Under the pieces are notes generated by a model. The model was not told the DNA's origin. It made no database searches and saw only the letters and a program-made list of their open reading frames with translations. A DNA stretch of 64,000 nt from Desulfobacterales bacterium (GTDB taxonomy: Bacteria > Desulfobacterota > Desulfobacteria > Desulfobacterales > JADGBH01). Location: the NCBI GenBank assembly GCA_015231595.1, contig JADGBH010000001.1, positions 1,108-65,107 on the forward strand, written 5' to 3'. The position numbers and the translations under genes were made by a program. Of this stretch, positions 3,814-57,804 are shown in pieces; positions within the stretch are counted from its first letter, which is position 1; every line of letters starts with the position of its first letter.

Positions 3814-6800
3814 ATGAAAAAAAATTTAAAGATATATTTGATTTGTATAATTGTTTTATTCCAAGCGAATATAATTTTTGCTGCAGATTCTCTTTTGGTT
3901 GGAGTCACAAATCTTGAAAAAATAATAGATGTTTCTAAAATTAACTATGAAAATTTTAAGGATTATTTTATAAATAACAGCCCTACCTTGCCTTCTGTAA
4001 CTATATCTTCAGATGTATCTGCTCAAATTGGAGTTATCTGGATTCATCAAGGTGATGATATGGGATTAATAAGAGTTGTTATTGATTCTAATAATGATGG
4101 AAATTTTTCCCAAATTGATTGGGATGATCCGATTCATCCTTGGAATCCTCCTGACAACGATGATTCAATTTACTGGAACTATACTTATCCAGATAGCTAT
4201 CCTGATGTTAAATTAAAAAATACAACAATTACAATGCACTGGGATGATGAATGCGAATGTGTTCAAGGTTTTCCATTCGAAAGTTTTATTTGGGACTGGT
4301 ATTTAGGATCTTACGATATAAATAATGAATTATGGATAGAGCCCTATAAATTAGCCAGTATAACTTGGGATGGAAGAGACTCAAAAGGCGATTTTATTCC
4401 GAATGGACAATACAAGGTTCTTATTTGGTTAGATACCGATGAAAATTATAAATTTTCACCGGACGAAATTAATCAGCAAATAATTGTTAAAATAGAAACA
4501 GCGTCTATTACTGGAACAATAGTTGATGAAAGTGGAAACTCTATGTCACATATATTTGTAGAAGCCTCTTCAAGTGTCGCATGGGGTAAAACTATGACAG
4601 ATAAAGAAGGCAAATTCATAATATCAGGATTGATGCAAGGCGGTCCTTATCAAATTAAAGCATCAAGTGAAGGAAGTATGGGTGCTTTTATAGACAATGT
4701 TAACATAGAGCCTAATAATCTTGTTAAAGATGTCGGTATAATTAAATTATCAAGTATGGCGGTTATTTCTGGTATAATTAAGCTGGATTTAAACGCAAAT
4801 GGAATATTAGATGAATCGGATGATGAATTTAAGTCATTCACAGATAAATGGGGTTGGATAGAAGAAGAACTTGATGTAGAAATTGAAGCTTTTAATATAG
4901 ATGGGCCAGGTTTTAGCCACGCACTTTTAAAATTTAAAGTTGGCGAATCTTCCGTAGAATTTATGCTGCAGATTCCAGAAAAAAATAATGCTGTGTATTC
5001 AGTTTCAGCTGAGGTTGATGGGTTTGCTTCTAAGGAAAATAAGGTTAACATAATAAATGGTAATGGAGTTTGTGAGCCTATAATTTTAACAAAAGCGTCT
5101 AAATTATTCGGGAAAGTAAAATTACCAGGTCTGATAACCGAGTATAAAGAAATTGCAGTTATGGCTGTAAACACTGAAAATCAGGCTGAAAAATATTCTG
5201 GATGGGGACAGATTATACCCTATGAAAAAATAAAATATTGTTCAAATATCAATTATTCTGATCAAACGTCTTGTGAAATTTCTGGAGAAGAATGGATAAC
5301 AAAATATGATCAAAATACTATTAAACCTTCTGATTCAGGCAAGTTTGACTTTAACGGGGTTCCTCCAGGAATTTATAACTTAGAAATCAGAATTGACGGC
5401 TACAAAGTTAAGCATATTAATGGAATTAAGATTGAAAAAGGTAAATATACAGACTTAGGAGAGATTTTCATTGATCAAGGTTCAAAAATTTATGGCAAGA
5501 TTGTGGTTAGAGGAAATACTATCAATGATCAAATGCTTGATGAAGAAGATGCTAAATTAAGAATACCAATATGGATTGAAGCATGGTGCCCAGCAATGGA
5601 TATATCGAGCGGAACAACTGTTTTTATTAACAAAGGACTAAATCAAATCGGTTCTTACATCATAGGAGGTTTAGAAAAAGGAGTATATGAAATTAGTACT
5701 CAGTTTAAAGAAGGGTATGAATTAACAGATGAAAACGGGGAATCTCCTGTTATTGTTAATGTTGAAGATTCAGTAGTTAAAAATATCGTTTTAAAACCAT
5801 CGTCTGGTATAATAAAAGGAACTATAACTGGAAAGGATATTAATATTGATTTATCAAAAGTAATTGTAGAACTTAAAATGTCGGATAATTTTGAATTCAC
5901 TAAATTTGCTTCGGTAGCAAATAAAGGTATTGATCCAACTACAGGTGACTTTACCATTGATGGACTTCCGACAGGAGATTATATTTTTAAAGCTGGAATG
6001 TATATAAATTCTTTAAATTACGATGGAAAAATGAATTTATTTTCAGACCCAAATGTTGGAATTCAATGTAAGAGAGTTTTTGTTAAAAATTCTAATACTC
6101 CAACTATTATGGATATTAGTCTGGAGAAAGGATATTCAATATCTGGAAAGATATATTTGAGTTCAACAGATCCTCCGTGGCATGATTTTGGAGATGGGCG
6201 TGGAGGCTCAGCAAACGGGATTAAGGACATATCCAATGATAAGTTTGATGAACGAATTTCTATTGCAAATGACATAGCCGGGTCGTTTGTGGCTGCATTA
6301 CCTTTAGATCTAATGCTAATGGAAGAATCAAATGAGACAAAAGATTCCATAATAGGTTACATAAAAGACAATGGAGATGGCACAGCGTCTTATAAGATTG
6401 ATGGTTTAAATTTGGGAGCTTATCTTATAATTCCTCCTTTTGGATCCGAGCGCATAAAAAAAATAATAGATGATGAAAGTTTAGAAACAGAAGGATCTGA
6501 AGATGAGCCTGTTTTTTTTGATGGAGGTGAAGAAGTTCACCATTGGACAACTTCTGCAGAGTTGATAGTTGTTCCTCCAAATGTTTCATTAAATAAAGAT
6601 TTTACTTTCGCAAATGGTTATAAAGTTTCCGGCCGTATTACTTTACCTGAAATTCAAATGTTAAATAAGAATTTTCTCCAGGATAAATGGGCATGGATAG
6701 GTCATTTAGAAATAGAATCAGCTATGCAGCAATTTTTAGGGCATGGCAGACCTTTATTTAAAAATGATTTTAATAATTCTACTTTTTATGATTACAGTTT

Positions 6801-9111
6801 TGACCATGTTGCTAATGGAAAGTATATAATTCATTTCTTTACGGATCAATACATAAGTGAAAGTGCTCAAATAAATGTCGATAATGCTGATGTAATATCA
6901 AATATAAGTGTAAGTAAAGGTGTCAATATTGTCGGGAATTTAATCGATGCTGAAACAAGTAATCCTGTTACTTCAAAGGAAGGAATAAAAGTTTTATGTA
7001 TGTCCGATCCTTTTGTAGAAGGAAGTTACAGAGAAACCATAAATGAGCCATGGTCGAGTTCTTATATTGAAGATAATTCAGGTATAAAAGAGGAAATGTT
7101 TGCTCCAGAAAATTTTGGCCAAAAAGATAAAAGAAATATATCACCAGGCAAATTTCATTTAAGTTCAGTTATTCCAGGATATTATTATATAATTGCAATT
7201 GAGAGTAGTGGAGATCCTAATTTACAAAAAAATAAAAATTATATTAATCATCAAGTTGTTGCGAATATAAAAATTCCTGAAAATGCATCAGGAGATGTAA
7301 ATATAGGAACTATTTATGTAAAAAAGGGCGCCGTAATAAAAGGTAGATTAGTAGATGAAAATAATGAACCAATTCCAGGAGTTAATGTAGTAGCATTTCC
7401 ATCTGATTCAAATGAAGGTGAAAACGAATTACGCTCAGAATCGGATGATCAAGGGTATTATACAATTTTAGGAGTCAACCCAAAAATAAGTTATTACGAC
7501 ATAATTGCCGCAAAAAGTGCTTGGATGTTTGATGATTGGAAAAAAGAAAGACAATGGGGCGAAAAAAGACGTCACAGCGTTAAAATTTCAAATATTGATT
7601 CTCAAACAGGTCTTACAGTTGGAGCTTCTTTTGTCCTTAAGCCTGCTACTGCAAGTTTATCTGGTTTAATTACACTTCCTGATTCTTCTCAATTTATGCT
7701 TCCCTTTGTGTCAGACTTTGGAGAAGGCCTTCCAGCGAGCTATATTCTTCTTCAACAAAAAGGCGTTCTATATAAAGATATGCTTGATGGAATAGAAGGT
7801 ATTACTGCACCTCAGCCTCAAAACACCAGGATAGCTCCCTATAAAATTGATAGTATTGAACCAGGCTTGTATCGTGTAATTTTTATGAATTATGGCCTTC
7901 CGAGAGCTGTTATTGATAATGTTTCATTCAAAGCAAATGAGGATAAAATAATTAATGTTTCATGGGATAATAATTTTTATAAAATATACGGAAAATGCAC
8001 CTTATCATCAGGAAAATATCCGACTTTTGGGGATATAGACGGAGTTGTATGTATTAATACTGTTGATCATACCATTATTTTTGGACGTCTGCGGCGTGAA
8101 GCAGATGGAACATACACTTCCTATGAAGTAGCCGGTCTTGCTGGCAGTGACACTTATCAGCTTGTATTTTTTAAAGATTCAATATACGATGAAGCTCCAG
8201 ATATAATTAATGCCGGAGAACCTTTTAATCTGGCATATTCAGATAAAAATTATGATGCAGTTATTGATAAAAAAAAGGATCCGATATTAATTCTAAGGAC
8301 AGTTCAAGATGATAACAATAAAATCTTATTCGATATTTTTAGTAGCTCTTATTTTTCTAATGAGCAAATTGAGATCGTATCATCTGAACCAACAGAAAAT
8401 ACAAAGCGAGGTTCTATTTATCTGAAATATGGAAGTGGAAATTTAAAGGATGTTGAAATTTCAGAAAATCAGCTAAAAATGAGTGGCGTTTATAAAAAAT
8501 CGTCAAATGATAAAATTATTAAAATGGTCGTAGCACTTCATTACGGAACAGAGTTATCTACAAAATTGCAGGAATTTATTTTTGATTCTGAACAAAAAAT
8601 AATCAACACAAAAATAATTAACCGTTATATATCAGGACAAATAAATCTTGGTTATGGTGACAGCAGCGGCATATATATCCCTTCAGATTCTATGGATATA
8701 AAAAATGATAAATATTTAAATGTCAAAGTTATTTTACAAAAAAGTGGCAATAAATCCTTAGACTCTTTTCCTGATAAAATTATTCCAGTTAGTGAAAAAT
8801 ACGAATTTTTAGCGGAATCTATAGATACTGGAGAAAGCTTATCGTGTAAAATACCTGTAATAGTTCAGCTTAAATATGATTCTAAGGATGTTTCTAACTC
8901 GGATTTTCTAAATATTTATCGAAAAGAAAATAATACATGGCATAAGGAATCGGCAAGCCTCACTATTGATACTGAAAATAATACCATTGCTGCAGAGGTT
9001 GACACTTTAGGAGTTTTTGTTGTAGGCTATGGGCAAGAAGAGGAGGTAAAAAAAAATGTTATAGGTGGAGGAGGTTCAAGTGATTGTTTTATTTCAACCG
9101 TAATGAAATAG
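3814..9111 (+). CDS. Giant (1765 aa) secreted surface/adhesin-like protein with multiple carboxypeptidase-regulatory-like beta-sandwich repeats
   Basis: Signal peptide (IYLICIIVLFQANIIFA). Recurrent segments such as ITGTIVDESGNSMSHIFVEA..DKEGKFIISGL and IKGRLVDENNEPIPGVNVVAF..DDQGYYTILGV. Gly-rich, Cys-containing C-terminal tail GGGGSSDCFISTVMK. Confidence 0.75.
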   Translation: MKKNLKIYLICIIVLFQANIIFAADSLLVGVTNLEKIIDVSKINYENFKDYFINNSPTLPSVTISSDVSAQIGVIWIHQGDDMGLIRVVIDSNNDGNFSQIDWDDPIHPWNPPDNDDSIYWNYTYPDSYPDVKLKNTTITMHWDDECECVQGFPFESFIWDWYLGSYDINNELWIEPYKLASITWDGRDSKGDFIPNGQYKVLIWLDTDENYKFSPDEINQQIIVKIETASITGTIVDESGNSMSHIFVEASSSVAWGKTMTDKEGKFIISGLMQGGPYQIKASSEGSMGAFIDNVNIEPNNLVKDVGIIKLSSMAVISGIIKLDLNANGILDESDDEFKSFTDKWGWIEEELDVEIEAFNIDGPGFSHALLKFKVGESSVEFMLQIPEKNNAVYSVSAEVDGFASKENKVNIINGNGVCEPIILTKASKLFGKVKLPGLITEYKEIAVMAVNTENQAEKYSGWGQIIPYEKIKYCSNINYSDQTSCEISGEEWITKYDQNTIKPSDSGKFDFNGVPPGIYNLEIRIDGYKVKHINGIKIEKGKYTDLGEIFIDQGSKIYGKIVVRGNTINDQMLDEEDAKLRIPIWIEAWCPAMDISSGTTVFINKGLNQIGSYIIGGLEKGVYEISTQFKEGYELTDENGESPVIVNVEDSVVKNIVLKPSSGIIKGTITGKDINIDLSKVIVELKMSDNFEFTKFASVANKGIDPTTGDFTIDGLPTGDYIFKAGMYINSLNYDGKMNLFSDPNVGIQCKRVFVKNSNTPTIMDISLEKGYSISGKIYLSSTDPPWHDFGDGRGGSANGIKDISNDKFDERISIANDIAGSFVAALPLDLMLMEESNETKDSIIGYIKDNGDGTASYKIDGLNLGAYLIIPPFGSERIKKIIDDESLETEGSEDEPVFFDGGEEVHHWTTSAELIVVPPNVSLNKDFTFANGYKVSGRITLPEIQMLNKNFLQDKWAWIGHLEIESAMQQFLGHGRPLFKNDFNNSTFYDYSFDHVANGKYIIHFFTDQYISESAQINVDNADVISNISVSKGVNIVGNLIDAETSNPVTSKEGIKVLCMSDPFVEGSYRETINEPWSSSYIEDNSGIKEEMFAPENFGQKDKRNISPGKFHLSSVIPGYYYIIAIESSGDPNLQKNKNYINHQVVANIKIPENASGDVNIGTIYVKKGAVIKGRLVDENNEPIPGVNVVAFPSDSNEGENELRSESDDQGYYTILGVNPKISYYDIIAAKSAWMFDDWKKERQWGEKRRHSVKISNIDSQTGLTVGASFVLKPATASLSGLITLPDSSQFMLPFVSDFGEGLPASYILLQQKGVLYKDMLDGIEGITAPQPQNTRIAPYKIDSIEPGLYRVIFMNYGLPRAVIDNVSFKANEDKIINVSWDNNFYKIYGKCTLSSGKYPTFGDIDGVVCINTVDHTIIFGRLRREADGTYTSYEVAGLAGSDTYQLVFFKDSIYDEAPDIINAGEPFNLAYSDKNYDAVIDKKKDPILILRTVQDDNNKILFDIFSSSYFSNEQIEIVSSEPTENTKRGSIYLKYGSGNLKDVEISENQLKMSGVYKKSSNDKIIKMVVALHYGTELSTKLQEFIFDSEQKIINTKIINRYISGQINLGYGDSSGIYIPSDSMDIKNDKYLNVKVILQKSGNKSLDSFPDKIIPVSEKYEFLAESIDTGESLSCKIPVIVQLKYDSKDVSNSDFLNIYRKENNTWHKESASLTIDTENNTIAAEVDTLGVFVVGYGQEEEVKKNVIGGGGSSDCFISTVMK

Positions 9112-9154
9112 GCTAAAAGATTAACACTAATTCAAAAATTAAAGGTGGTTAATT

Positions 9155-9355
9155 ATGGGGAAAAAGTTAAAGGAGTATCGCCTTAATAGGGACTGGTGTA
9201 AAGGTTGCGGAATATGCGTATATTTTTGCCCCAAAAAAGTTCTTATAATGGACGAAAGCGGTAAAGCAAAGGCGGAAAATATTGAAAATTGCATTGTATG
9301 CAGGCTTTGTGAAATTAGATGTCCTGACCTTGCAATAGAAATATTTGAAGAATAA
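9155..9355 (+). CDS. 2-oxoacid:ferredoxin oxidoreductase delta subunit (2x[4Fe-4S] ferredoxin-like, OorD/KorD type)
   Basis: 66 aa with two CxxCxxCxxxCP motifs (CKGCGICVYFCP, CIVCRLCEIRCP). First gene of a delta-alpha-beta-gamma set. Confidence 0.8.
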   Translation: MGKKLKEYRLNRDWCKGCGICVYFCPKKVLIMDESGKAKAENIENCIVCRLCEIRCPDLAIEIFEE

Positions 9356-9405
9356 CCGTCTGAAATTTTTCACTTTCAATATCAAAAAATTATAAGGTAT
9401 TTATC

Positions 9406-10551
9406 ATGAGCGAATTAAAATTTTTACAAGGCAATGAAGTTTGTGTAGAAGCAGCGCTTTATGCGAATGTTGATTTTTTTGCGGGCTATCCTATAACGCC
9501 TTCGACCGAGATAGCTGAACACATGGCGTCAAAGCTTCCTCAAAAAGGGGGGCATTTTATACAAATGGAAGATGAAATCGCTTCGATGTGCGCTATTATA
9601 GGAGCGTCTCTTACTGGCCATAAAGTTATGACAGCAACGAGCGGGCCTGGTTTTTCCCTTATGCAAGAAGCTCTTGGTTATGCAGTCATGACCGAAATTC
9701 CATGTGTTATAGTTAATGTTCAAAGAGGAGGCCCTTCTACCGGTCTTCCGACAAGCGTTGGACAAGGTGATGTAGGACAGGCTTTAAGAGGAACCCACGG
9801 AGATCATGCTATTATAGCTCTTACCGCTTCCAATCATCAGGATATTTTTTCAATTACTGTTGAAGCTTTTAATATGGCTGAAACTTATAGAACTCCAGTT
9901 ATTCTCCTTTTTGATGAAGTTATAGGTCATATGAGAGAAAAAGTCCTAATACCTGAAAAAGACGAACTTCCTTTAGTTGAAAGATTAAAAACTTCTGTAA
10001 AGGGAGAGGTTGATTATCACCCTTATCTTCCAAGGGAAGACGGACGTCTTCCAATGTCTGATTTTGGTGGGGTTAATCGTTACAATGTAACAGGGCTTTA
10101 TCATGATATGTGGGGATTTCCATCAAATAACCCTAAAATTGTTCATGACCTCATCCGTCATTTGGTAGATAAAATCAATAGTAACACCTACATTATAGCA
10201 AGATATAAAGAATACTATCTTGATGATGCTCGAGTTATTTTTATATCTTACGGGAGTTCCGCTAGATCAACCCGTCATGTAGTTGAAAGTGCAAGAAAAC
10301 GTGGGGAAAGAATAGGACTTTTGGAACTTCAGACTCTTTGGCCATTTCCATTTGGAATTGTTCGGGAGAAATGTTCAAAAGCTCGATATGTTATTGTTGT
10401 TGAAATGAATATGGGACAGGTACTTTTACCTGTTAAAATGGCTGTAGAAAAGTCAACAAAAGTATTTTTAGCTAATCGTATTGATGGAGTGCTTATAACT
10501 CCGACTGATATACGAAATATGCTAAGAATGATTCAAGGAAGGGGGATGTAG
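9406..10551 (+). CDS. 2-oxoacid:ferredoxin oxidoreductase alpha subunit
   Basis: 381 aa. N-terminus LQGNEVCVEAALYANVDFFAGYPITPSTEI is typical of KorA/OorA/PorA alpha subunits. Confidence 0.85.
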   Translation: MSELKFLQGNEVCVEAALYANVDFFAGYPITPSTEIAEHMASKLPQKGGHFIQMEDEIASMCAIIGASLTGHKVMTATSGPGFSLMQEALGYAVMTEIPCVIVNVQRGGPSTGLPTSVGQGDVGQALRGTHGDHAIIALTASNHQDIFSITVEAFNMAETYRTPVILLFDEVIGHMREKVLIPEKDELPLVERLKTSVKGEVDYHPYLPREDGRLPMSDFGGVNRYNVTGLYHDMWGFPSNNPKIVHDLIRHLVDKINSNTYIIARYKEYYLDDARVIFISYGSSARSTRHVVESARKRGERIGLLELQTLWPFPFGIVREKCSKARYVIVVEMNMGQVLLPVKMAVEKSTKVFLANRIDGVLITPTDIRNMLRMIQGRGM

Positions 10552-10554
10552 CTT

Positions 10555-52731: not shown

Positions 52732-53622
52732 TTATTTCTCCTCTTCACTTAGAGCTTCGAAACCGGAGATGACATCGAACAGTTCCTCGTCAATGACACT
52801 CTGGCGTAAACGATGGAATGTCCTGTTAAGGGTCTCCAGCAATTCGTTGATATTTTTGTCGGCGCGTTGCATCGCCGCCAGTCGGCTTGCATTCTCGCTC
52901 GCAAGGGATTCAGCGCAGGCCCGAAAGAGCGATACGAAAAGATATTCGCGGATGAGCACCCGCAAGGTCGCGGTACCGTCACCCATAACCTCGGGCAAAC
53001 TTCCCTCAGGCCATGGAAGTCCTGCCAACCTGTGTCGCCAGTTTTCGTCCAGCGGCAGCAGCCTCTGACCGAAGGGCGCATAAACAGATCCGGACATGGG
53101 GCGATTGTAAAAGATGTGAAGTTCGGTAATCTTGCCCTGACTTTGGCGCGTTTCGTTCTCCACGAGAATTTGCCCGACAAGCGGGGTGATGGCCTTGACG
53201 GAGTTGGGCACAGCAAAGAGCCCTATCACCGGAAGCCCAGCGTCCGTTAGGCGTGCTTGAACGCGCTCACCGACGGCCCATACCTCAGGTTTGACCGGCA
53301 AAGCAGCCAGTATCTTGATCACATAATCAACCACCACATCATTAAACTGCCCCACCAACCCCTGGTCTGAACCGAACACGACCGCACCAATCGCACCTGT
53401 AACTGTTTTTTTTCGTTCTGCAATCAAGGACGCCGACCCGCTTTTTCGAAAGCATGCGCTGAGCCCCAACTCCACAGAGCGATAGTAGTCGGCCAGCGCA
53501 GCCACTGATTTCTCGTATTGTCCGATGCTCGAAGCGGCCACGGCCTTCATCGTGCGGACAACGGATTGGAGATCCCCAGCGCTGTCGATCTTTCGTCGCA
53601 GGCTCGCTATGGTATCGCTCAT
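52732..53622 (-). CDS. atpG: N-ATPase gamma subunit
   Basis: About 296 aa of gamma-like sequence, with a C-terminal RQSVIDEELFDVISG helix. ATG at 53622 overlaps the upstream stop (TGATG); the track starts at GTG 53625. GC-rich. Confidence 0.85.
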   Translation of the reverse strand: MSDTIASLRRKIDSAGDLQSVVRTMKAVAASSIGQYEKSVAALADYYRSVELGLSACFRKSGSASLIAERKKTVTGAIGAVVFGSDQGLVGQFNDVVVDYVIKILAALPVKPEVWAVGERVQARLTDAGLPVIGLFAVPNSVKAITPLVGQILVENETRQSQGKITELHIFYNRPMSGSVYAPFGQRLLPLDENWRHRLAGLPWPEGSLPEVMGDGTATLRVLIREYLFVSLFRACAESLASENASRLAAMQRADKNINELLETLNRTFHRLRQSVIDEELFDVISGFEALSEEEK

Positions 53623-54971
53623 CACGCCTCCGGGAGTTTCTGTTCGGGTGAAAAGAACGATTCGAGTGCTTCGCGCACACGCCTCAGTCGGCTTTCAAAT
53701 CTTGTCCAGTCGTATGGAGACTCTATGGAGCGTTCTGCCAATTCGGCGATACATTCCACTCTTTCATGTATTGCCCGTCGCCGGTTTGAGTCGGATGTCA
53801 GGCTGGCGATGGTTTGAAATGCGCAAAGTATCCGCGACATTATAGCGATGTTGCCAACTGCATTCTGCCGGATTTGGTCGAAGGCTTCTGATAGCAGGCT
53901 CTCGAAGCTTGGGCCTTGGGCAAGCACTCGAAGATCCCCCTGATCAAAACGGTGGTAGGTCGCAATCCGGCGAGCCGCAAGCCGAACCAAGATAGCCGCC
54001 AGGTAATCTACACAAATTACTGCGGTTGTGGTATCGTTAATGCTTGGAGAAAGTGCTTTCATGGCGATATCCACAATCTGCCGGATCCCGAACGCGACAT
54101 CTGTTTCCACCGTGCGCTGACGGCTGATGACATAGGCTGAGTTCAGCTCGACAGCCGTATCGTCGTCCAGACCGTCCGGGTTGATCACTGAAACCAGTGG
54201 CGTGCCCTCGATGACAAACTCCCCGATGCAGCATTCCATCCGCAGAATGGTCCCGTGTTTTCTGGCCACACCCACGAGCACGTTTATGTCAATATTTTCG
54301 ATGTAACCGGTTTTCAGGGTCGTAACGGCGGACCAAGGTTGATTTGCAAGAGATGCCCGGAGATTGTCGTGCCCGTCTTCGTCTTCGTTTTCATCCATCT
54401 CTTTGGGAAATAAATGATCCACAGCCGCGATGGTCTCCTGAGCGGCCTTGGCTATAATGCTCGACGCCTGGATGGACATCGAGAGGTAGTGAATGAAGTA
54501 GATCAGAAAAGCGATCCCAACGAAAGCAAGGATCAGACCGGCCAACACCGCAAGCGCCGGAACGAACGCCCCTTCGTCACCACCACGAATCGTCCGCAGC
54601 ACCACCAGGCAGTAGGCGAAGATGCTGACAAACACGCCGAGCACCATCTGATTGACACGGTCTCGCATAAAATTGCGAATGACCCGTGACGTGTACTGAC
54701 TGGACGTCAGCGAGAGGGCAACGAGGGTGATTGAGAACACCACCCCGGCCACCGTGATCATCGAGCCTGCGACTGCCGTGAGCAGACCGCGGGCACCTGC
54801 CGCACCAGCTCCGAATACCAGCGGCCAGCGCGCGACAGGATTTAGATCGACTGTCGCATCCACAGTGATCAGGACGGTGGCGAGCACCACTACGTCCAGA
54901 ACCATCAAGGCAGGTACGAACCAGAAGCTCGACCGTTTTTCCTGCCACCAATGGTGTAGTTTCGTTAACAT
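53622..54971 (-). CDS. DUF2254-family integral membrane protein embedded in the N-ATPase operon
   Basis: 449 aa. FWFVPALMVL..., GARGLLTAVAGSMITVAGVVFSITLVALSLTSSQYTSRVIRNFMRDRVNQMVLG match the DUF2254 signature as I remember it. Same GC-rich composition as the atp genes. Confidence 0.75.
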   Translation of the reverse strand: MLTKLHHWWQEKRSSFWFVPALMVLDVVVLATVLITVDATVDLNPVARWPLVFGAGAAGARGLLTAVAGSMITVAGVVFSITLVALSLTSSQYTSRVIRNFMRDRVNQMVLGVFVSIFAYCLVVLRTIRGGDEGAFVPALAVLAGLILAFVGIAFLIYFIHYLSMSIQASSIIAKAAQETIAAVDHLFPKEMDENEDEDGHDNLRASLANQPWSAVTTLKTGYIENIDINVLVGVARKHGTILRMECCIGEFVIEGTPLVSVINPDGLDDDTAVELNSAYVISRQRTVETDVAFGIRQIVDIAMKALSPSINDTTTAVICVDYLAAILVRLAARRIATYHRFDQGDLRVLAQGPSFESLLSEAFDQIRQNAVGNIAIMSRILCAFQTIASLTSDSNRRRAIHERVECIAELAERSIESPYDWTRFESRLRRVREALESFFSPEQKLPEA

Positions 54972-55074
54972 TTCCAGTTATACCTCCATTATGATGTTGG
55001 ATCTTTCGTCTGTTTATCAGTGGTAAAAGTCCCGGAATCAGCCGGCAACAAATTCTCCTCGTTTTTGGGCATTA

Positions 55075-56643
55075 TCAAGTAACTTCGGTCTTTTGTCCCG
55101 GCTTTGACTTGGAGTCCTGTTCGGGCAAGAACCCTTTGATCGCTTGACGGGCGATTTGAATTATCGTTTCACGATCCGCATCACTCAACTTGTCAGCGGT
55201 ATCCAATCTCTCACGCACGTCCGGTGGAATATTCACAGCCGCCTCTCGCAGGGCTTGCTCGGCGTCCATCATCAGGTCAATCGGCACGTGGTCGAAGAGT
55301 TCCTTGGTCAATGCCAGCAGCACGGCGATTTGCGCTGGAACGGACACCGGGGAAAATTCCGGCTGTTTGAGGCAGGAGCGAATTCGACGTCCGTGCTCGA
55401 TGATTTTGCGGGTATTTTCATCCAGTCGTGCGCCGAACCGTGAAAAGGTTTCGAGTTCCTCGAACTGCGCATAGGCGAGTTTAAGATCTCCGGCCACCGA
55501 GCGGTAAGCTGCCCGCTGAGCCTTGCCACCCACACGCGAAACGGATTTGCCGACATCGACTGCGGGCAAAACACCCAATTCGAACAGCGACGGCGAGAGG
55601 TAAATCTGTCCATCAGTTATGGAAATCAGATTGGTCGGAATATAGGCGGAAATGTCCTGTGCTTCGGTTTCGATGATGGGCAAGGCTGTGAGGGTGCCGC
55701 TGCCGAGTTCCTTGCACAAGTGCGTCGAGCGTTCCAACAGCCGCGAATGGATATAAAAGATGTCACCTGGAAATGCTTCGCGACCGGGTGGACGGCGCAG
55801 CAACAGAGAAAGTTCGCGGTAGGCGCGCGCGTGATGGGTCAGGTCGTCATAAACGATCAGCACATCCCTGCCCGCTTCCATGAAAGACTCCGCGATGCTG
55901 GTTGCTGCATAAGGAGCGACGTAAGTCAGACCAGGCGGGTCGTTGCCCTCGGTTACGACAAGGACGGTATAATCCATCGCTCCCTTTTCCCGCAAGGTTG
56001 CTACGGCCTTCGCAACGGCGGACGCACGCTGACCGATGGCACAATAGACACACAGGACATTCTCGCTACGCTGATTCAAGATGGTGTCGATCGCAATGGC
56101 AGTCTTGCCCGTCTGGCGGTCGCCGAGAATCAACTCGCGTTGACCGCGCCCAACTGGAATGAGTGCATCAATGACTTTAAGGCCGGTCTGGAGAGGCGCC
56201 GTAACAGGCGCACGGTCCATGATGGGCGCGGCAGGACGTTCGACGGGAAGGCGCCTGCTTGAGGCCACCGATCCTCTACCATCGAGCGGCCGGCCAAGCG
56301 GGTCGATGACCCGACCCAGCAATCCATCACCCACTGCCACATCCATGACCCGTCCAGTGCGATGCACTTCATCTCCTGCGTGGAGATGCCAGTATTCGCC
56401 GAGCAGAACAACGCCGATTTCGTCCTCGTCCACATTGAACGCAATGCCGGGCACATCGCCTGGAAACGTCACCAATTCATCAAAACCTACGCCGGGAAGA
56501 CCCGAAACTTTGGCAATACCGGTACCGACACTGGTGATCGTGCCCACCTCCCGTAGACTTAATTGCGACGTAAAAGCTTCCCGCACCTGGCTTATCCCGG
56601 CAAACATGTTGTCGAAAACGTTTTGAAGGCTCTCAGGTTCCAT
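55075..56643 (-). CDS. atpA: N-ATPase alpha subunit
   Basis: Walker A GDRQTGKT and typical alpha sequence. ATG at 56643 is 9 nt after AAGGAG; the track uses GTG at 56649. Confidence 0.9.
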
Positions 56644-56645
56644 GT

Positions 56646-57485
56646 TCACTGACTCCTTGTTTCGTGTTTGATTTTTTTATGTTCAGCTTTGGTTTTTGAA
56701 TCTGGTTCGGTTTTAGCCTCCGGCTTGTCCTTCTCTTTCAGAAGTTCGTCGATGCCTTTTTCTATCGACGCCAGATAATCCGCAATGCTCCACACCACCT
56801 TTCGTCCATTTGTAGACAGTTCAATGCCGCTGATCAGATCTGGAGCAGTCTCGAACCGGATGTTGACTTCAGCAGAGAAGGTTTCGTTGATCGCATTTTG
56901 TATTGCCGCACATTGTGCCGCAGACAGTTCAAATGCGCTTCGAACGAGCGCGGGTTCAGACGATGTTTTAAGTGCCACGACGAGGCTTTCTTTTGCCTGG
57001 CCGTCCATCTCTCTCAATCTACGGGTGAATACCTCACCCATTCGTTCTTCCAAACTTGTCGAGGCAAGATCCTTCAGTGCCTTTCGCGCGATGGCAAACA
57101 CTTCCTTCACAGTCCGACGGCTGATGGCCTGATTCAAGTTACTGACGTCGTTTCTCAGCGTTTCCAGTCGCTTGGCACTCAAGTCATCGGCCGCTTTCCG
57201 TGCTTCGTCGAAAAGACGTTTACGTTCGGCCAGGGCATCTTCTGTAGCTTTGCTAAAGAGCGCGGCACGCTGATCATCAAACTTCTTATTTTTGTGATTG
57301 AACTCGTCACTCTCTTTTTGGGCTTCGGCCTTTTTCTTGTCGGCGCTAGATAGTTCCGTGGCAATCCGTTTCTCCCGCTCATCGATGGCGTTAAGAATCG
57401 GTTTGTATAGAAAACGCTTCATCAACCACACCAGGCTGAGAAAGTTGAGCACCTGCGCAACGATGGTGAACCAATCGATTAACAT
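56646..57485 (-). CDS. atpF: N-ATPase long b subunit (b with delta-like C-terminal region)
   Basis: One N-terminal TM helix ([21 protein letters not shown]), a long coiled coil, an extra C-terminal domain and a K/E/P-rich tail. No separate atpH. The preferred start is 57485; 57518 is the alternative. Confidence 0.8.
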
Positions 57486-57489
57486 AGGC

Positions 57490-57771
57490 TTATTTTCCTG
57501 TTGTTTGGGCAATGACATGGTTCCAGAATGGGTTGGCGAAAACGAGAATCATCGAGACCACAAAACAATAGATGGCCGTTGACTCGATCATCGCCAGGCC
57601 TACGAACAATGTCCGGGTGATGGTGGCGGATGCATCGGGCTGCTGGGCCAGCGAACTCAATGCCGTTGCGACAGCTTTACCTTCTGCCAGGGCAGGCCCC
57701 AAACAGCCGAAACTGATTGTGATTCCGGTGATGACAATGGATGCTACTGCGATAATTGTCATGTTATCCAT
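57490..57771 (-). CDS. atpE: N-ATPase c subunit with Na+-type (two-carboxylate) ion-binding motif
   Basis: Start MDNMTII at 57771, 6 nt after AAGGAG. Hairpin with loop QQPD. Helix 1 ALAEG and helix 2 MIESTAIY. Confidence 0.9.
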   Translation of the reverse strand: MDNMTIIAVASIVITGITISFGCLGPALAEGKAVATALSSLAQQPDASATITRTLFVGLAMIESTAIYCFVVSMILVFANPFWNHVIAQTTGK

Positions 57772-57804
57772 AATTTCTCCTTTGTTAAAATTTAGGTTCA
57801 TACT

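Follow-up and report, generated by a model that had tools for sequence, protein, structure and literature searches.

This report concerns a 64,000-nucleotide stretch of Desulfobacterales bacterium contig JADGBH010000001.1 (positions 1,108 to 65,107, forward strand; hereafter the window, i.e., the whole stretch analysed) and, within it, the gene for a membrane protein of the DUF2254 family that lies inside an operon for an N-type ATPase (N-ATPase). Ten consecutive open reading frames (ORFs) run on the minus strand from position 61000 down to 52732, in the order atpD-C-Q-R-B-E-F-A-DUF2254-G. The features of the locus are given below in window coordinates and in the direction of reading, with L numbers denoting the loci used for comparison.

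59504..61000, minus strand: atpD, N-type beta subunit (TIGR03305, 883 bits vs. a cut-off of 752)
59125..59601, minus strand: atpC, epsilon subunit, given as the maximal ORF, with the family match beginning near residue 29 (TIGR03166, NF004871)
58794..59147, minus strand: atpQ (PF09527; TIGR02230)
58481..58861, minus strand: atpR, the N-ATPase hallmark gene (PF12966, E 9.2e-32; TIGR03165, 104 bits vs. a cut-off of 55.5)
57805..58500, minus strand: atpB, a subunit (TIGR03306, 386 bits)
57490..57801, minus strand: atpE, c subunit (TIGR03322)
56646..57518, minus strand: atpF, long b subunit with a delta/OSCP-like C-terminus (TIGR03321, 323 bits; PF00430 and PF00213)
55075..56649, minus strand: atpA, N-type alpha subunit, maximal ORF extent (TIGR03324, 923 bits vs. 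a cut-off of 750)
54972..55074, minus strand: atpA-DUF2254 spacer of 103 nt, with GGAGG at 54987-54983, 11 nt ahead of the DUF2254 ATG
53622..54971, minus strand: DUF2254 (PF10011) gene, 449 aa, ATG start (ORF, Pfam E 5.3e-118, AlphaFold2 model)
53620..53624, minus strand: TGATG, in which the DUF2254 stop TGA (53624-53622) overlaps the atpG ATG (53622-53620) by one base (read in the sequence)
52732..53622, minus strand: atpG, N-type gamma subunit (TIGR03323 alt_F1F0_F1_gam, 430 bits vs. a cut-off of 282)
52735..61153, minus strand: foreign GC-rich island homologous to L140 and L001 (blastn and composition)

All nine ORFs flanking the DUF2254 gene exceed the cut-offs of curated NCBIfam 'alternate F1F0 ATPase' or AtpR/AtpQ models, and since the alpha, beta, gamma, a, b, c, and epsilon subunits each score above their own 'alternate F1F0' cut-off, the operon is of the N-type and not of the F-type. 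The AtpE protein carries both the helix 1 glutamate (LAEGK) and the ESTxxY motif (MIESTAIY), and because these agree with the published criteria (PMC2881411), a Na+-binding rotor is predicted and the pump is expected to translocate Na+. In the described N-ATPase layout, atpDCQRBEFAG, atpG comes directly after atpA (Dibrova, Galperin & Mulkidjanian 2010, PMC2881411), as an earlier sequence-only reading of this DNA had stated; that reading had also placed the gene for a 449-aa DUF2254-type protein between the two, which is indeed what lies there.

The product of this gene matches PF10011 with 394.5 bits vs. a gathering cut-off of 28.8, with residues 13–386 covering profile positions 1–367 of 368, so that the family assignment holds. 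Its N- and C-terminal halves each match PF10011 separately, and no second Pfam family was found in either half when searched at E-values up to 10. Close relatives are numerous (66–88% identity), homologues at 83–88% identity align with the protein from residue 1 onwards, and the ratio of nonsynonymous to synonymous substitution (dN/dS) amounts to 0.19–0.22, with a value of 0.18 for atpG. The gene is genuine and selectively maintained, i.e., under purifying selection.

The island in which the operon resides extends from ~52.73 to 61.15–61.33 kb and contains ~54% GC vs. 31% GC in the background. As had been suggested for gene and island, their GC-rich composition is shared: the GC content at third codon positions (GC3) is 0.62 for DUF2254, 0.53–0.64 for the atp genes, and 0.17–0.28 for host genes. 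The island consists of the N-ATPase operon and the DUF2254 gene only, and host-like AT-rich sequence lies on both of its sides within the one contig. The ClpX protein of the host is 74–77% identical to its nearest relatives, the named ones of which are all Desulfobacterales or 'Deltaproteobacteria' metagenome-assembled genomes (MAGs). The host belongs to a divergent lineage of low GC content. By blastn, the island is 79–84% identical at the nucleotide level to L140 and 87–90% to L001. The atp-like composition of the DUF2254 gene, together with the same arrangement and junction sequences in L140–L142, shows that it arrived with the operon, as the sequence-only reading had supposed.

At the DUF2254-atpG junction, the TGATG overlap occurs exactly where it had been claimed, and the ribosome-binding site (RBS) of atpG, GGAGG, is located inside the 3′ end of the DUF2254 gene ahead of it (sequence read GGAGGCGTGATG). 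Since the RBS thus falls within the last DUF2254 codons and the stop overlaps the atpG start, translation of atpG is probably coupled to that of DUF2254. In the proposal that both are co-translated, the overlap, the RBS placement, and the recurrence of such overlaps elsewhere stand firm, and the coupling itself is deduced from them. At the other junction, the atpA-DUF2254 spacer has no terminator and shows no RNA structure beyond shuffled controls (fold z = +0.52), because of which the DUF2254 gene is most likely co-transcribed with the atp operon. Terminator-like sites were absent from both DUF2254 junctions (with 5 such sites in the scan vs. a shuffle expectation of 11.3±3.9), and promoter-like sites in a consensus scan were near shuffle expectation (12 vs. 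9.1±3.2). A weak 9-of-12 promoter-like match in the spacer (55016–54988) was not taken as evidence of an independent promoter.

The distribution of this arrangement was surveyed in two sets of loci. The DUF-anchored set comprises 55 loci (52 from one genome per GTDB species, plus three look-ups), the flanks of which were scored by mapping the atp proteins of the window onto them, and the subfamily under study is taken as DUF2254 proteins at 60% identity or more. The atpG-anchored set comprises the best 80 loci from a search of JGI metagenome contigs for N-type AtpG (72–86% identical to that of the window), 71 of which are informative, i.e., the gene upstream of atpG is visible. Immediate partners of DUF2254 were identified by clustering flanking ORFs and by Pfam annotation.

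The sequence-only reading had asked whether DUF2254 genes are ever linked to N-ATPase operons elsewhere, and this is the case in 20 of the 55 DUF-anchored loci. The atpA-DUF2254-atpG order occurs in 12 of them, i.e., in Chromatiaceae (Thiocapsa, Thiorhodococcus, Lamprocystis, Thiodictyon), Desulfobulbales (Desulfobulbus, Desulfogranum), and others, while DUF2254 lies just after atpG in four (Competibacteraceae and one Pseudomonadota MAG), just before atpD in three, and beside a decayed operon in one (L026). Among cultured strains, the atpA-DUF2254-atpG order is carried by Thiocapsa bogorovii, Lamprocystis purpurea DSM 4197, Thiorhodococcus mannitoliphagus DSM 18266, and Desulfogranum marinum DSM 2058. 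No atp gene was found within the flank at the remaining 35 loci. In a tree of AtpA, the operons with the atpA-DUF2254-atpG order fall into three separate clades among uninterrupted operons, and in a tree of DUF2254 the copies between atpA and atpG, those after atpG, and those linked to MscS interleave; these patterns suggest repeated gain, loss, or relocation of the DUF2254 gene.

The closest relative with the same layout was encountered in three independent metagenome samples (L140, L141, and L142), with a DUF2254 protein 83% identical to that of the window and the gene order glgP, small ORF, atpDCQRBEFA, DUF2254, atpG, followed in L140 and L141 by baeRF3 and/or glycolysis genes. The junction string ccggaggcgtgatgagcgatacc is identical in the window and L140, and the RBS and start region before DUF2254 are conserved as well. 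Overlaps between DUF2254 and atpG also occur in L013, L014, L017, L025, L029, and L140, with ATGA stop/start overlaps in L013, L014, L017, and L025 and repeatedly in Chromatiaceae loci, while the Desulfobulbales loci have a 57-nt spacer in place of the overlap; the atpG leader of L050 reads ggaggcgtgatgag. In L001, which is the closest relative of the window in its atp genes (87–90% nucleotide identity), atpA adjoins atpG and the DUF2254 gene lies 3.7 kb upstream. That copy is still trailed by a 29-codon fragment of the atpG 5′ end, so that the DUF2254-atpG junction must be ancestral to the clade, with a later rearrangement in L001. Synonymous divergence between the window and L140 is 0.40 for DUF2254 and 0.70–0.95 for the flanking atp genes, whereas between the window and L001 it is ~0.22–0.38 for all genes; because DUF2254 and the atp genes differ in this respect against L140 and not against L001, the history of the island appears to be mosaic.

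The proposal that DUF2254 is an unrecognised component of this ATPase class did not fare equally well, and a role as core or class-wide N-ATPase subunit is not supported. Among the informative loci of the best 80 atpG-anchored ones, DUF2254 was found in the atpA-atpG junction of 0/71; atpA directly adjoins atpG in 64, and an HPF/YfiA-like gene, with or without a baeRF_family3 (baeRF3) gene, fills the junction in the other seven. In three of the 80, DUF2254 lies just downstream of atpG. The gene is likewise absent from Acaryochloris pREB4 and from the examined region of a Hymenobacter psoromatis plasmid, where 'RloA', considered as a hidden DUF2254, showed no similarity. Moreover, the nine-gene N-atp operon of B. 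pseudomallei, when introduced into B. thailandensis, yielded a membrane-assembled N1No although the construct contained no such gene (PMC5376962). In L026 (Thiocapsa imhoffii, 7870–11726), finally, only fragments of atpQ, of the atpA C-terminus, and of the atpG N-terminus remain, while baeRF3, the HPF-like gene, and DUF2254 are full-length; as they are intact beside a decayed operon, these accessory genes seem to outlive the pump.

DUF2254 also pairs with transporters other than the N-ATPase. A gene for a BON-domain MscS-like channel (BON-MscS) lies directly upstream of DUF2254 in 13–14 of the 55 loci, with gaps of –4 to 17 nt, and this pairing is as common as the ATPase linkage. The two-gene module is present in L003, L005, L006, L016, L018, L021, L022, L027, L033, L042, L049, L051, and L143, and L143 contains one of the two closest relatives of the window's DUF2254 (88% identical). 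Genes for a CDF transporter (overlapping by 4 nt), for P-type cation ATPases, for PPK2, and for Usp were also found as direct neighbours; a Hymenobacter plasmid has a Na+/H+ antiporter gene 13 nt ahead of DUF2254, and in L139 the DUF2254 gene (87% identical protein) is flanked by pyruvate:ferredoxin oxidoreductase genes on one side and a P-type ATPase on the other. Below 57% identity, most homologues occur by themselves. The wider islands contain glycogen phosphorylase, glycolytic genes, ADP-forming acetyl-CoA synthetase, phosphoketolase, Usp, and SpoIIAA-like genes. In L140/L141 (1–17347), L001 (5446–21344), and L137 (the Hymenobacter psoromatis plasmid), N-ATPase operons lie amid glycogen phosphorylase, phosphoglucomutase, GAPDH, aldolase, pyruvate kinase, and ADP-forming acetyl-CoA synthetase genes, a neighbourhood resembling a supra-operon for 'glycogen to ATP to ion pumping'.

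The atpA-atpG junction serves as a hot spot for insertions in general, HPF-like and baeRF3 genes among them. In many operons it is filled by an HPF-like gene of 123 aa, the stop of which overlaps the atpG start and which often stands behind baeRF3 (L056, 13–1514; L076, 4254–6001; L051, 1269–2825; L012, 1354–2499; and further L071, L073, L084, L015, L031, and L002). Such a placement of ribosome-hibernation genes within the operon of an ion pump seems not to have been reported before. A pairing of baeRF-1 and HPF genes has been published (Burroughs & Aravind 2019, PMC6514570), in the main text of which neither 'ATP synthase' nor 'F1F0' was found. Duplicated 5′ or 3′ fragments of atpG flank the cassettes in L001 (11344–11430), L076 (4254–4358), and L051 (5078–5320), which suggests recombination through the atpG ends as the route by which accessory genes enter and leave the junction. 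Insertions occur elsewhere in these operons too: L002 (Thiocapsa bogorovii) has a gene with a faint 23S_rRNA_IVP match between atpF and atpA (7567–8136), and, downstream of the operon, an 84-aa DUF2254 fragment that adjoins insertion sequence (IS) elements (13665–13919). The 'single-gene insertion' of Dibrova 2010, a work that also notes a two-gene insertion in Cyanothece, was considered as a further DUF2254. It turned out to be a different gene, as atpQ and atpR of Acaryochloris pREB4 are separated by a cation:proton antiporter gene; this gene (L136, Acaryochloris marina, 3877–5106) constitutes a further ion transporter embedded in an N-ATPase operon.

The structure of the DUF2254 protein was modelled confidently with AlphaFold2 on a 71-sequence alignment (predicted local distance difference test score, pLDDT, 84.5; predicted template-modelling score, pTM, 0.77). 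The model has four transmembrane (TM) helices, at residues 18–40, 57–89, 105–127, and 139–166, and a soluble C-terminal half after them, in agreement with the N-terminal TM helices, the motif (here residues 70–105, SMITVAGVVFSITLVALSLTSSQYTSRVIRNFMRDR), and the soluble half that had been read from the sequence. Beyond the TM block it comprises an amphipathic helix, an alpha/beta domain at ~210–285, and a helical domain, and by the positive-inside rule the N-terminus, the 90–104 helix (RVIRNFMRDR), and the C-terminal domain would be cytoplasmic. Conservation is highest in TM2, the 90–104 helix, TM3, and loop 128–138 (RGGDEGAFVP), predicted to be periplasmic, with a top-residue frequency of 0.82–0.87, and helices 286–335, containing ALSPSINDTTTA, are also among the most conserved parts of the protein. 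A conserved ALSPxINDTTTA helix-loop-helix is present, of which S308, N312, T316, and A317 are invariant in the 71 sequences. Because the TM core is so strongly conserved, the membrane part is likely functional and more than an anchor. The only good local Foldseek superposition covers ~90 residues at a root-mean-square deviation of 2.1–2.7 Å on the alpha/beta-hammerhead C-domain of thymidine/pyrimidine nucleoside phosphorylase, and names a fold, not a function. A role in anti-phage defence was considered and dropped, as PADLOC recognised none of the four proteins DUF2254, baeRF3, HPF-like, and BON-MscS.

DUF2254 might itself be a cation channel and distant kin of the tetrameric NaK/K+-channel pores, with loop 128–138 (GGDEGAFVP) as filter and TM4 as inner helix. 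NaK-type pores are the only PDB sequence matches in phmmer and hmmsearch (E 0.049 with the single sequence, 0.011 with the profile), their filter and M2 helix align to DUF2254 residues 131–181 ('GDGNFSP...FIHKLAVNVQLPSIL' vs. 'DEGAFVP...FIHYLSMSIQASSII'), and the loop as well as F136, P138, F159, H161, and Q168 are invariant or nearly so. These matches are marginal in E-value, however, and are all variants of one protein in a TM-biased region; moreover, a full-length TM3 is joined to TM4 in the model by a 10-residue loop that has no re-entrant pore helix, Foldseek lists no channel among the PDB matches, and Pfam gives no Ion_trans_2 signal for DUF2254 even at E 10. We regard such a channel as very improbable, and the resemblance stays a weak lead because the model has no re-entrant pore helix. 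The NaK-like stretch as a whole covers DUF2254 residues 119–182 (window ~54426–54617; E 0.011–0.05).

The explanation that we favour, at a probability of roughly 55%, is that DUF2254 belongs, as an independent membrane protein, to a mobile gene set for cation homeostasis and dormancy, is co-expressed with the pump, and is carried in an acquired N-ATPase operon. According to this explanation, the DUF2254 gene would have been carried within a horizontally acquired operon for a predicted Na+-translocating N-ATPase, would be transcribed with that operon, and would have atpG translation coupled to it. The subfamily would travel between cation-transport operons, i.e., those of N-ATPases (in three positions), BON-MscS, Na+/H+ antiporters, CDF transporters, and P-type ATPases, and the islands around them also contain genes of dormancy (HPF-like, baeRF3, Usp, PPK2) and of energy reserves (glycogen phosphorylase, glycolysis), two classes that we do not separate sharply here. 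As an autonomous inner-membrane protein, DUF2254 could sense or conduct cation flux through its conserved TM2–TM3 core and its cytoplasmic domain. It might act as a regulated leak, a counter-ion path, or a regulator, and the flux might complement the co-expressed pump or channel under salt, osmotic, or energy-limitation stress.

A different explanation is that DUF2254 serves a subset of N-ATPases as a dedicated subunit with an accessory, regulatory, or assembly role and binds, by way of its cytoplasmic domain, the membrane sector (a/c/b/AtpR/AtpQ) or the gamma stalk. The N-ATPase linkage in 20 of the 55 close homologues, in three positions, would then reflect repeated selection for linkage; the recurring stop/start overlaps with atpG and the retention of DUF2254 when the operon alone moved into the window's host point the same way, and the subunit might make contact through the TM core, which is highly conserved. 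We nevertheless hold a dedicated subunit to be improbable in view of the 0/71 junctions and 3/80 downstream positions among the best-listed AtpG relatives, of subfamily members at up to 88% identity that have BON-MscS or another transporter as partner and no atp gene at a distance of up to 10 kb, of the survival of DUF2254 in the decayed operon of L026, and of the membrane-assembled N1No obtained from the nine-gene B. pseudomallei operon (PMC5376962). That unrelated HPF-like and baeRF3 genes fill the same junction in other operons speaks against it as well, and instead recommends the idea that DUF2254 is a functionally unrelated passenger, lodged in a permissive junction by cassette-like recombination and sharing stress or dormancy regulation with the pump, not ion physiology. 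Under that idea, the HPF-like genes with or without baeRF3 in 7/71 junctions (plus L002, L012, L015, L031, and L051), the duplicated atpG 5′/3′ fragments around cassettes in L001, L076, and L051, the frequent neighbour changes on the DUF2254 tree, and the different gene (the cation:proton antiporter) between atpQ and atpR in Acaryochloris pREB4 would all be expected. A mere passenger nonetheless seems rather unlikely, as the immediate partners are overwhelmingly cation transporters and not random genes, the N-ATPase linkage exists in three positional forms and three AtpA clades, and purifying selection together with the conserved overlaps favours a maintained operon role.

Were the GC-rich island an assembly chimera, the whole context would be artefactual. 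The abrupt step from 31% to 54% GC might hint at this, and there is no public run containing the sequence that could provide read support. Such a chimera is hardly credible, since AT-rich host-like sequence flanks the island on both sides within one contig and L140, L141, and L142, each from a different sample, independently show the same internal arrangement, which makes the atpA-DUF2254-atpG layout independent of this assembly. Several points do weigh against the autonomous membrane protein that we prefer. Linkage alone cannot tell a protein that works beside the pump from one that binds it, and both the tight overlap with atpG and the retention in an operon-only transfer are also expected of a true accessory subunit. 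No experimental or structural homologue supplies a biochemical activity for DUF2254, and Foldseek of the AlphaFold2 model vs. the PDB found no relative at E<0.001. The atpG-anchored loci are a sample and no census, so that 0/71 gives a rough upper bound of ~4% and no exact frequency; the AtpA and DUF2254 trees are neighbour-joining trees without support values; and a search of public sequencing runs gave none that contains the island (maximum word share 0.09, with metagenomes only).

A bolder proposal, which we consider tentative and on balance unlikely, is that the DUF2254 subfamily is a portable auxiliary module of N-ATPases, BON-MscS, and Na+/H+ antiporters that physically or functionally gates or balances Na+/cation flux in dormancy or salt stress. 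If true, it would provide the first function for a family of >11,000 clusters at 50% identity (11,407 match at E<=1e-3) and would mean that N-ATPase operons differ in 'flavour' according to their accessory genes (DUF2254, HPF-like, baeRF3). As second rotary ATPases, N-ATPases are widespread and poorly defined in their physiology, and DUF2254 is a large family without known function. A first usable lead to that function comes from the tight and recurrent placement of one DUF2254 subfamily beside Na+ pumps, MscS-like channels, antiporters, and P-type ATPases, in islands that contain ribosome-hibernation and energy-reserve genes as well. The uptake of stress-related genes at an atpA-atpG hot spot of the 'strictly conserved' N-ATPase operon is relevant to the question of when these pumps are expressed, and for what reason. 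What is gained in practice is a hypothesis from gene context rather than a mechanism. Both the operon type and the DUF family were already known, whereas the searchable literature mentions neither their association nor the three positional variants, the pairing with BON-MscS, or the hot spot at the junction; a literature search retrieved no paper linking DUF2254, COG4325, IPR018723, or PF10011 to ATPases, and no published function or context.

Two further features of the window were noted. A small ORF of 42 codons (60990..61118, minus strand) overlaps the start region of atpD (…CATGGGCGATAA) and has its own GGA-rich RBS; it is conserved upstream of atpD in L001 and L140–L142 (by alignment) and not in the other N-ATPase loci, and has no Pfam or NCBIfam match. 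L001 contains a second copy of its 3′ half upstream of baeRF3. It may encode a leader peptide or a small regulator. Outside the island, a 379-aa gene at 19969–21108 (minus strand) has a GC content of 0.52 and a GC3 of 0.58 in the 31% GC host and matches neither Pfam nor NCBIfam; it, too, is probably foreign.

Compared with known systems, the window operon most closely resembles the N-ATPase operons of PMC2881411, with which it shares all nine genes and their order, the presence of AtpR and AtpQ, the lack of a separate delta subunit, a long b subunit with an OSCP-like end, and the signature of lateral transfer. It differs from them by the tenth gene, DUF2254, between atpA and atpG, and whereas the GC content of those operons tracks that of their hosts, that of the window operon does not, which suggests a recent transfer. 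Like the assembly factors of the AtpI/AtpR type, DUF2254 is a membrane protein of an atp operon outside the catalytic or rotor core. However, AtpR is present in every N-ATPase operon (PMC2881411) and DUF2254 in a small minority, and DUF2254 is much larger (449 aa, with a ~260-aa cytoplasmic domain) and equally often found with non-ATPase partners. In related loci, the baeRF-1/HPF pairs are found either at that same place between atpA and atpG or next to DUF2254; they point to a dormancy or stress regulon, but are soluble ribosome-associated proteins with no relation to DUF2254. The likeness to NaK and other two-TM P-loop channels (PDB 2AHY, 3E83) is weak and local, confined to the loop and a TM helix. 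With the 'predicted membrane proteins' of PF10011/IPR018723, a family described from AlphaFold models only and with knotted and unknotted members (PMC11184937), the protein shares the N-terminal TM block and the soluble domain, and what sets its subfamily apart is the operonic association with cation transporters.

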